A stretch of 64,000 bases of DNA from assembly GCF_045037415.1 (NCBI RefSeq), contig NZ_CP173438.1; one strand, 5' to 3'. Below, piece by piece: positions 2,711-5,284 of this stretch. Source of the stretch: Escherichia coli (GTDB lineage Bacteria; Pseudomonadota; Gammaproteobacteria; Enterobacterales; Enterobacteriaceae). The translations under genes were made by a program, and so were the position numbers. How positions within the stretch are numbered: position 1 is the first letter of the stretch; every line of letters starts with the position of its first letter. The notes beneath the pieces were generated by a model. It saw only the letters and a program-made list of their open reading frames with translations. It was not told the DNA's origin and did no database searches.

Positions 2711-5284
2711 ATGCGTCTGGATCGTCTTACTAATAAATTCCAGCTTGCTCTTGCCGATGCCCAATCACTTGCACTCGGGCACGACAACCAATTCATCGAA
2801 CCACTTCATTTAATGAGCGCCCTGCTGAATCAGGAAGGGGGTTCGGTTAGTCCTTTATTAACATCCGCTGGCATTAATGCTGGCCAGTTGCGCACAGATA
2901 TCAATCAGGCATTAAATCGTTTACCACAGGTTGAAGGTACTGGTGGTGATGTCCAGCCATCACAGGATCTGGTGCGCGTTCTTAATCTTTGCGACAAGCT
3001 GGCGCAAAAACGTGGTGATAACTTTATCTCGTCAGAACTGTTCGTTCTGGCGGCACTTGAGTCTCGCGGCACGCTGGCCGACATCCTGAAAGCAGCAGGG
3101 GCGACCACCGCCAACATTACTCAAGCGATTGAACAAATGCGTGGAGGTGAAAGCGTGAACGATCAAGGTGCTGAAGACCAACGTCAGGCTTTGAAAAAAT
3201 ATACCATCGACCTTACCGAACGAGCCGAACAAGGCAAACTCGATCCGGTGATTGGTCGTGATGAAGAAATTCGCCGTACCATTCAGGTGCTGCAACGTCG
3301 TACTAAAAATAACCCGGTATTGATTGGTGAACCCGGCGTCGGTAAAACTGCCATCGTTGAAGGTCTGGCGCAGCGTATTATCAACGGCGAAGTGCCCGAA
3401 GGGTTGAAAGGCCGCCGCGTACTGGCGCTGGATATGGGCGCGCTGGTGGCTGGGGCGAAATATCGCGGTGAGTTTGAAGAACGTTTAAAAGGCGTACTTA
3501 ACGATCTTGCTAAACAGGAAGGCAACGTCATCCTGTTTATCGACGAATTACATACCATGGTCGGCGCGGGTAAAGCCGATGGCGCAATGGACGCCGGAAA
3601 CATGCTGAAACCAGCGTTGGCGCGTGGTGAATTGCACTGCGTAGGTGCCACGACGCTTGACGAATATCGCCAGTACATCGAAAAAGATGCTGCGCTGGAA
3701 CGTCGTTTCCAGAAAGTGTTTGTTGCCGAGCCTTCTGTTGAAGATACCATTGCTATTCTGCGAGGCCTGAAAGAACGTTACGAGCTGCACCACCATGTGC
3801 AAATTACTGACCCGGCAATTGTTGCAGCAGCGACGTTGTCTCATCGCTACATTGCTGACCGTCAGCTGCCGGATAAAGCCATCGACCTGATCGATGAAGC
3901 AGCATCCAGCATTCGTATGCAGATTGACTCAAAACCAGAAGAACTCGACCGACTCGATCGCCGTATCATCCAGCTCAAACTGGAACAACAGGCGTTAATG
4001 AAAGAGTCTGATGAAGCCAGTAAAAAACGCCTGGATATGCTCAACGAAGAACTGAGCGACAAAGAACGTCAGTACTCCGAGTTAGAAGAAGAGTGGAAAG
4101 CAGAGAAAGCCTCGCTTTCTGGTACGCAGACCATTAAAGCGGAACTGGAACAGGCGAAAATTGCTATTGAACAGGCTCGCCGTGTGGGTGACCTGGCGCG
4201 GATGTCTGAACTGCAATACGGCAAAATCCCGGAACTGGAAAAGCAACTGGAAGCCGCAACGCAGCTCGAAGGCAAAACTATGCGTCTGTTGCGTAATAAA
4301 GTGACCGATGCCGAAATTGCTGAAGTGCTGGCGCGTTGGACGGGGATTCCGGTTTCTCGCATGATGGAAAGCGAGCGCGAAAAACTGCTGCGTATGGAGC
4401 AAGAACTGCACCATCGCGTTATTGGTCAGAACGAAGCGGTTGATGCGGTATCTAACGCTATTCGTCGTAGCCGTGCGGGGCTGGCGGATCCAAATCGCCC
4501 GATTGGTTCATTCCTGTTCCTCGGCCCAACCGGTGTGGGGAAAACTGAGCTTTGTAAGGCGCTAGCGAACTTTATGTTTGATAGCGACGAGGCGATGGTC
4601 CGTATCGATATGTCCGAGTTTATGGAGAAACACTCGGTGTCTCGTCTGGTTGGTGCGCCTCCGGGATATGTCGGTTATGAAGAAGGTGGCTACCTGACCG
4701 AAGCGGTGCGTCGTCGTCCGTATTCCGTCATTCTGCTGGATGAAGTGGAAAAAGCGCATCCGGATGTCTTCAACATTCTGTTGCAGGTACTGGATGATGG
4801 GCGTCTGACTGACGGGCAGGGGAGAACGGTCGACTTCCGTAATACGGTTGTCATTATGACCTCTAACCTCGGTTCCGATTTGATTCAGGAACGCTTCGGT
4901 GAACTGGATTATGCGCACATGAAAGAGCTGGTGCTCGGTGTGGTTAGCCATAACTTCCGTCCGGAATTCATTAACCGTATCGATGAAGTGGTGGTCTTCC
5001 ATCCGCTGGGTGAACAGCACATTGCGTCGATTGCGCAGATTCAGTTGAAACGTCTGTATAAACGTCTGGAAGAACGTGGTTATGAAATCCACATTTCTGA
5101 CGAGGCGCTGAAACTGCTGAGCGAGAACGGTTACGATCCGGTCTATGGCGCACGTCCTCTGAAACGTGCAATTCAGCAGCAGATTGAAAACCCGCTGGCA
5201 CAGCAAATACTGTCTGGTGAATTGGTTCCGGGTAAAGTGATTCGCCTGGAAGTTAATGAAGACCGGATTGTCGCCGTCCAGTAA
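2711..5284 (+). CDS. clpB: Chaperone disaggregase ClpB (AAA+ ATPase, two NBDs)
   Basis: Track ORF 2699..5284; start set to the second ATG (MRLDRL) for the 857-aa protein; two Walker A motifs ([16 protein letters not shown]). Confidence 0.95.

Follow-up and report, generated by a model that had tools for sequence, protein, structure and literature searches.

A 64,000-nt stretch of DNA (the window) holds, inside the clpB gene, an in-frame GTG at codon 149 (3155..3157, + strand) set behind a strong Shine–Dalgarno (SD) sequence, and we regard it as practically certain that this site is the known dual-initiation arrangement of Escherichia coli clpB, by which one gene gives both the full-length chaperone ClpB95 and the N-terminally truncated ClpB80. 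The internal start of ClpB80 is itself already known, having been described about thirty years ago and entered in the K-12 reference genome; as a textbook case of alternative in-frame initiation verified by several methods, it brings nothing new for biology. The site serves instead as a positive control, a true internal start recovered from raw sequence alone. Sequence statistics of the kind presented below are suggestive, and the decisive support is external, coming from the K-12 annotation, from initiation profiling by Ribo-RET and from mutants in Salmonella.

The arrangement can be pictured as a single heat-shock mRNA that would offer ribosomes two entry points in the same frame. Initiation at the ATG at 2711 would yield full-length ClpB95, the GTG at 3155 then being read as valine; other 30S subunits would bind the GGAGG core at 3143..3147 and initiate at the GTG at 3155, with Val149 read as fMet, to yield ClpB80. 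This shorter product would lack residues 1-148, and with them Clp_N, and would keep both AAA+ modules, the middle domain and the C-terminal domain. Mixed hexamers would then be expected to behave as the literature describes, hetero-oligomers of ClpB80 and ClpB95 reactivating aggregates better than either form by itself (PMC6941012), with a ClpB80:ClpB95 ratio that would shift with stress, as stated in the passage of PMC11005335 that cites Chow and Baneyx 2005.

The nested reading frames of clpB

The window comes from an E. coli chromosome. Its segment 2600..5400 has a match in 5425 of 5426 complete E. coli genomes, several of them at 100%, including that of strain SK1144, in which the gene order here is bamD, rluD, yfiH, clpB and then a 16S-tRNA-Glu-23S-5S operon. 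The clpB coding sequence (2711..5284, + strand), as given by the SK1144 RefSeq annotation of the identical sequence, by its translation and by the NCBIfam equivalog NF008118, encodes ClpB95, a protein of 857 aa with a computed mass of 95.6 kDa. Membership of the ClpB family is established by that curated equivalog model, which is matched over its full length (residues 1-857) at 1926.7 bits, above its cut-off of 1417; on the same protein TIGR03346 scores 1470.9 bits (cut-off 1232). The Pfam domains run from Clp_N (two stretches, the best at 17-68) through AAA (203-336), AAA_lid_9 (342-442) and AAA_2 (596-760) to ClpB_D2-small (766-845), and the expected ClpB order of Clp_N, AAA (NBD1), lid/middle, AAA_2 (NBD2) and ClpB_D2-small is thus present. 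The annotated ATG at 2711 is preceded by the primary ribosome-binding region GGGAGGAG (2699..2710, + strand), with a predicted anti-SD pairing energy of -10.2 kcal/mol.

Around the internal start, positions 3140..3160 read cGTGGAGGTGAAAGCGTGaac. The internal SD, GGAGGTGA (3143..3150, + strand), lies in the codons of Gly145-Gly146-Glu147 (GGA GGT GAA) and has a predicted anti-SD pairing energy of -10.6 kcal/mol, on par with that of the annotated start. Its GGAGG core (3143..3147) is separated from the GTG by a 7-nt spacer, and a spacing of 7 nt from SD to start is inside the usual functional range. Codon 149 lies 3' of both Clp_N stretches and 5' of NBD1, whose AAA domain begins at about residue 180-203 according to Pfam, and so falls in the linker between the N-domain and NBD1. 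From here the nested ClpB80 coding sequence (3155..5284, + strand) specifies 709 aa and, with an initiator Met, 79.9 kDa, without the Clp_N domain. The original prediction, which had placed a strong SD at 3143..3150 at optimal spacing before a GTG at 3155..3157 and had the product begin with VNDQGAED, is correct in every coordinate and agrees with the translation from the GTG at 3155; its identification of the product as the N-domain-less ClpB of about 80 kDa is borne out by the computed mass and by a start beyond Clp_N, as well as by the K-12 ClpB80 entry, Ribo-RET and the Salmonella mutant described next.

The match to K-12 is close. At the amino-acid level, the ClpB encoded here and that of K-12 MG1655 are 100% identical; the genes differ by 39 synonymous substitutions (98.5% nt identity), the nearest of them 77 nt from the GTG, so that the two genes share protein, SD, GTG at Val149 and predicted masses and differ only by synonymous substitutions elsewhere, and the 75 nt displayed around the internal site are identical. 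The K-12 RefSeq record carries two clpB coding sequences, 'chaperone protein ClpB' and 'ClpB80' (YP_010051194.1), the latter beginning 444 nt into clpB, at nt 445, which is codon 149. Because protein and site are identical to those of K-12, we infer that ClpB80 is probably expressed in this particular strain as well. The SK1144 annotation, produced by PGAP, has one coding sequence, and the earlier contention that the second product goes missing when only one CDS is annotated therefore holds for PGAP records such as this one and fails for the K-12 reference, which lists both. The case is a reminder that automated annotation of most E. coli genomes gives only one clpB product.

Experiments in two genera point to the same codon. 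Ribo-RET, which uses retapamulin, gave in K and B strains of E. coli a specific peak of initiation at the internal clpB site that had been verified before; the sentence of that study on the clpB site credits it to Park et al. 1993. A GUG149 start and two isoforms are likewise stated for E. coli in PMC6168691 and PMC6941012, with ClpB80 described as being without the substrate-interacting N-domain. In Salmonella Typhimurium, a chromosomal clpB::HiBiT fusion showed two bands, of 96.7 and 81.0 kDa including the tag, and the chromosomal change GTG445->CTT, at codon 149, left only the long form (PMC11005335). Under the condition reported, the short form was about nine-fold scarcer than the long one; SPI-2-inducing conditions changed the ratio (PMC11005335). 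The blots and retapamulin profiling proposed with the original prediction thus already exist in print, the former for Salmonella and the latter, as the Ribo-RET peak, for E. coli.

It is against these data that another possible start has to be weighed, the in-frame ATG of Met143 (3137..3139, + strand), just 18 nt, or six codons, upstream of GTG149. ATG initiates better than GTG, a Ribo-RET-based caller of translation initiation sites picked Met143 in Salmonella (PMC11005335), and the Met143 product, at a predicted 80.5 kDa, could not be separated on a gel from that of GTG149. Yet the Salmonella Met143 mutant keeps both proteoforms, and only GTG149->CTT removes the short one (PMC11005335); the K-12 annotation also places the ClpB80 start at codon 149. 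Moreover, the ATG at 3137 lacks an upstream SD at workable spacing, because the GGAGG lies downstream of it. We therefore treat Met143 as an in-frame decoy rather than the start used, and judge initiation there to be extremely unlikely as the source of the short form.

The pairing of two isoforms in this way has parallels of varying closeness. Salmonella Typhimurium ClpB-L/ClpB-S, although from another genus, uses the same internal GTG at nt 445, proven by chromosomal mutation. E. coli infB (IF2-alpha/beta) and mrcB (PBP1b) also translate one mRNA from two in-frame starts into a full-length protein and an N-terminally truncated isoform, with well-defined peaks at their internal starts in the same Ribo-RET study; they differ from clpB in that the proteins are unrelated and truncation has other consequences. 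ClpB of Mycobacterium tuberculosis, Synechococcus and Leptospira likewise has a form of about 80 kDa that lacks the N-domain and starts internally, close to the linker between N-domain and NBD1 (PMC6941012, PMC6168691), but the Leptospira start is an ATG with an AGGGAA SD (PMC6941012).

SD strength relative to chance

How unusual the site is can be gauged from the duplex energy predicted for positions -18..-4 paired with the 16S anti-SD, computed for all in-frame ATG, GTG and TTG codons within annotated genes. At -10.6 kcal/mol, codon 149 is the best of 52 such codons in clpB, the runner-up scoring -6.4, and across the 50 annotated coding sequences of the window (17,474 codons) it ranks first of 1060 internal in-frame starts, the only candidate at or below -10 kcal/mol. 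A simple energy ranking across these 50 genes thus puts the window's one known internal start first.

Against a null in which synonymous codons were shuffled within each gene, the picture is more nuanced. Shuffled windows average 4.7 sites at or below -10 kcal/mol compared with the one observed, which indicates that real genes avoid such sites and that clpB codon 149 is an exception. At the same time, a GTG with an SD of -10 kcal/mol or lower arises at the codon 149 position in 3% of shuffles, and clpB contains such a site somewhere in 28% of them, and on these rates sequence statistics alone are suggestive and not decisive. A separate short transcript was also considered: a crude scan for sigma-70-like promoters found none in 2711..3155, and an internal sigma-70 promoter as its source was accordingly rejected.

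The two next-strongest combinations of internal SD and start in the window are the GTG at recO codon 32 (34265..34267), which scores -9.5 kcal/mol with GGAGGA upstream, and the GTG at yphE codon 470 (59572..59574), at -9.3 kcal/mol with GGAGGAG upstream.

Conservation and predicted RNA structure of the site

Within E. coli the site is nearly invariant: 5371 of 5425 genomes carry exactly the same 66 nt around it. For a Bacteria-wide set we located ClpB loci by a degenerate pattern for an 11-residue motif independent of the site, which gave 89 loci with the full N-terminal region. The residue aligned to Val149 is Val in 65 of these 89 and Ala in 23. At this Val, GTG shows no enrichment, with 23 observed against 27.5 expected from the Val codon usage of the same genes, and on these counts Bacteria-wide conservation of the GTG was rejected. 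Given this lack of Bacteria-wide conservation of the codon, the cases of M. tuberculosis, Synechococcus and Leptospira may represent lineage-specific retentions or independent gains. In the linker region, this set has nine candidate starts preceded by a strong SD, six of them precisely at the codon-149 position, among them those of E. coli, a Pasteurellaceae genome, a Fundicoccus genome and a Nitrospirota MAG.

A different pattern appears in a proteobacterial subfamily set of 94 unique metagenomic loci that carry KYTIDLT downstream of the site. Here the codon-149 position is Val in 85 of 94 homologs, and among these 85 the codon is GTG in 50 against 40.5 expected, an excess concentrated in genes below 50% G+C (17 of 19, with 6.9 expected). 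A strong SD accompanies 20 of the 50 GTG loci as against 4 of the 35 with another Val codon (Fisher p=0.006), and GGA at the first Gly, which creates GGAGG, is found in 15 of 44 GTG loci compared with 1 of 33 non-GTG loci. The comparison thus suggests that Val is conserved for protein reasons and that GTG plus GGAGG forms an added layer, apparently under selection at synonymous positions in certain lineages. As judged from these alignments, co-selection of the two elements appears to be confined to some proteobacterial lineages, E. coli-like and Pasteurella-like ones among them, and to be missing elsewhere, for example in Xanthomonas-like ones. This amounts to a small refinement of the literature's description of the internal site as 'highly conserved', in which Val is widespread and the start signal would be lineage-restricted.

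Two Xanthomonadaceae-like loci keep R-G-G-E-K-V with SD-like DNA, which in one of them (L103) scores -10.0 kcal/mol, but both this locus and the other (L005) use GTC for Val. The Gly-Gly-Glu peptide alone can therefore yield an SD-like sequence without an internal start.

These observations bear on whether GGAGG and GTG could be a by-product of a conserved R-G-G-E-x-V peptide, the 80-kDa species then arising from proteolysis in the flexible linker or from an internal transcript. Several features fit such an origin: the Val is kept in both sets of homologs whatever its codon, Gly-Gly-Glu codons easily resemble an SD and some homologs pair GGAGG with the non-start GTC, and more than a quarter of synonymous clpB shuffles hold an equally strong site somewhere. 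However, footprints of initiation complexes map to the site by Ribo-RET, mutation of the start codon eliminates the short form in Salmonella (PMC11005335), and GTG, GGA and a strong SD tend to go together at positions that are synonymous; the empty sigma-70 scan of 2711..3155 also speaks against an internal transcript. Taken together, these points leave a by-product origin a vanishingly small probability.

The same peptide-coding segment could matter in another way. Intragenic SD-like sequences have been proposed to pause ribosomes, a proposal that is disputed, and an SD-like sequence located exactly at the N-domain/NBD1 boundary is where a pause in elongation might act on ribosomes making ClpB95, for instance to favour folding of the N-domain, rather than as a start signal. 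Such a role as the main function of the sequence is very unlikely in our estimation, as it leaves unexplained both why a start codon 7 nt further on is conserved along with the SD and why the short form is lost when that start codon is mutated (PMC11005335); pausing could coexist with initiation but is not needed.

RNA structure at the internal start offers a possible, if weak, link to regulation. In the minimum-energy fold of 3105..3205, the upstream segment CCACCGCC (3105..3113) is predicted to pair with 3141..3149 (GUGGAGGUG), which holds the internal SD. In E. coli this SD-pairing fold has z = -1.87, and positions -15..+3 have a predicted accessibility of 0.30, the gene median being 0.43, which places the site at quantile 0.14. 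The trend among homologs runs in the opposite direction: in the 20 homologs with GTG and a strong SD the site is predicted to be more open than the rest of its own gene (median quantile 0.81, p=0.009), and the 34 homologs without GTG show no such openness (median quantile 0.41). The greater predicted openness in the former group means that a conserved hairpin sequestering the SD is not supported, and we discarded that idea. The low predicted accessibility in E. coli may be noise, and it may provide a weak lead on the stress-dependent isoform ratio. It is conceivable, though we consider it improbable, that in E. coli a predicted hairpin between the SD and CCACCGCC could tie initiation of ClpB80 to temperature or to unwinding by the ribosomes that translate ClpB95; if true, the hairpin would supply a mechanism for the reported stress dependence of the ClpB80:ClpB95 ratio.

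Surroundings of clpB

Several features flank the gene. An ATG at 2699..2701 (+ strand) lies in frame, four codons 5' of the annotated clpB ATG at 2711 and within the primary SD region; the mechanical list of open reading frames consequently lengthens clpB to 861 aa from this ATG, whereas every annotation uses 2711. The Rfam family RF02768 (Ysr155/RyfD sRNA) matches 2592..2730 (+ strand) at 125 bits (gathering score 42), over the same stretch that K-12 annotates as ryfD. As this match takes in the leader of clpB together with 20 nt at the start of its coding sequence, the DNA called an 'sRNA' is, on the same strand, also the 5' UTR of clpB. About 40 nt 5' of the clpB start, positions 2644..2671 (+ strand) carry CTTGAA, a 14-nt spacer and CCTCATTT, an element that looks by eye like the sigma-32 heat-shock promoter consensus and that we take to be a candidate promoter of this class, outside the scope of the sigma-70 scan.

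On the 3' side, two near-consensus sigma-70 promoter-like sites at 5400..5427 and 5519..5546 (+ strand), with 11/12 and 10/12 matches, lie between clpB and the 16S rRNA gene (start ~5728), where the tandem promoters of an rRNA operon are expected. The window is identical to SK1144 as far as 5674..5710, where small indels with a net gain of 2 nt fall in the leader of the rRNA operon (rrnG); beyond them the two sequences are collinear to the end of the window.
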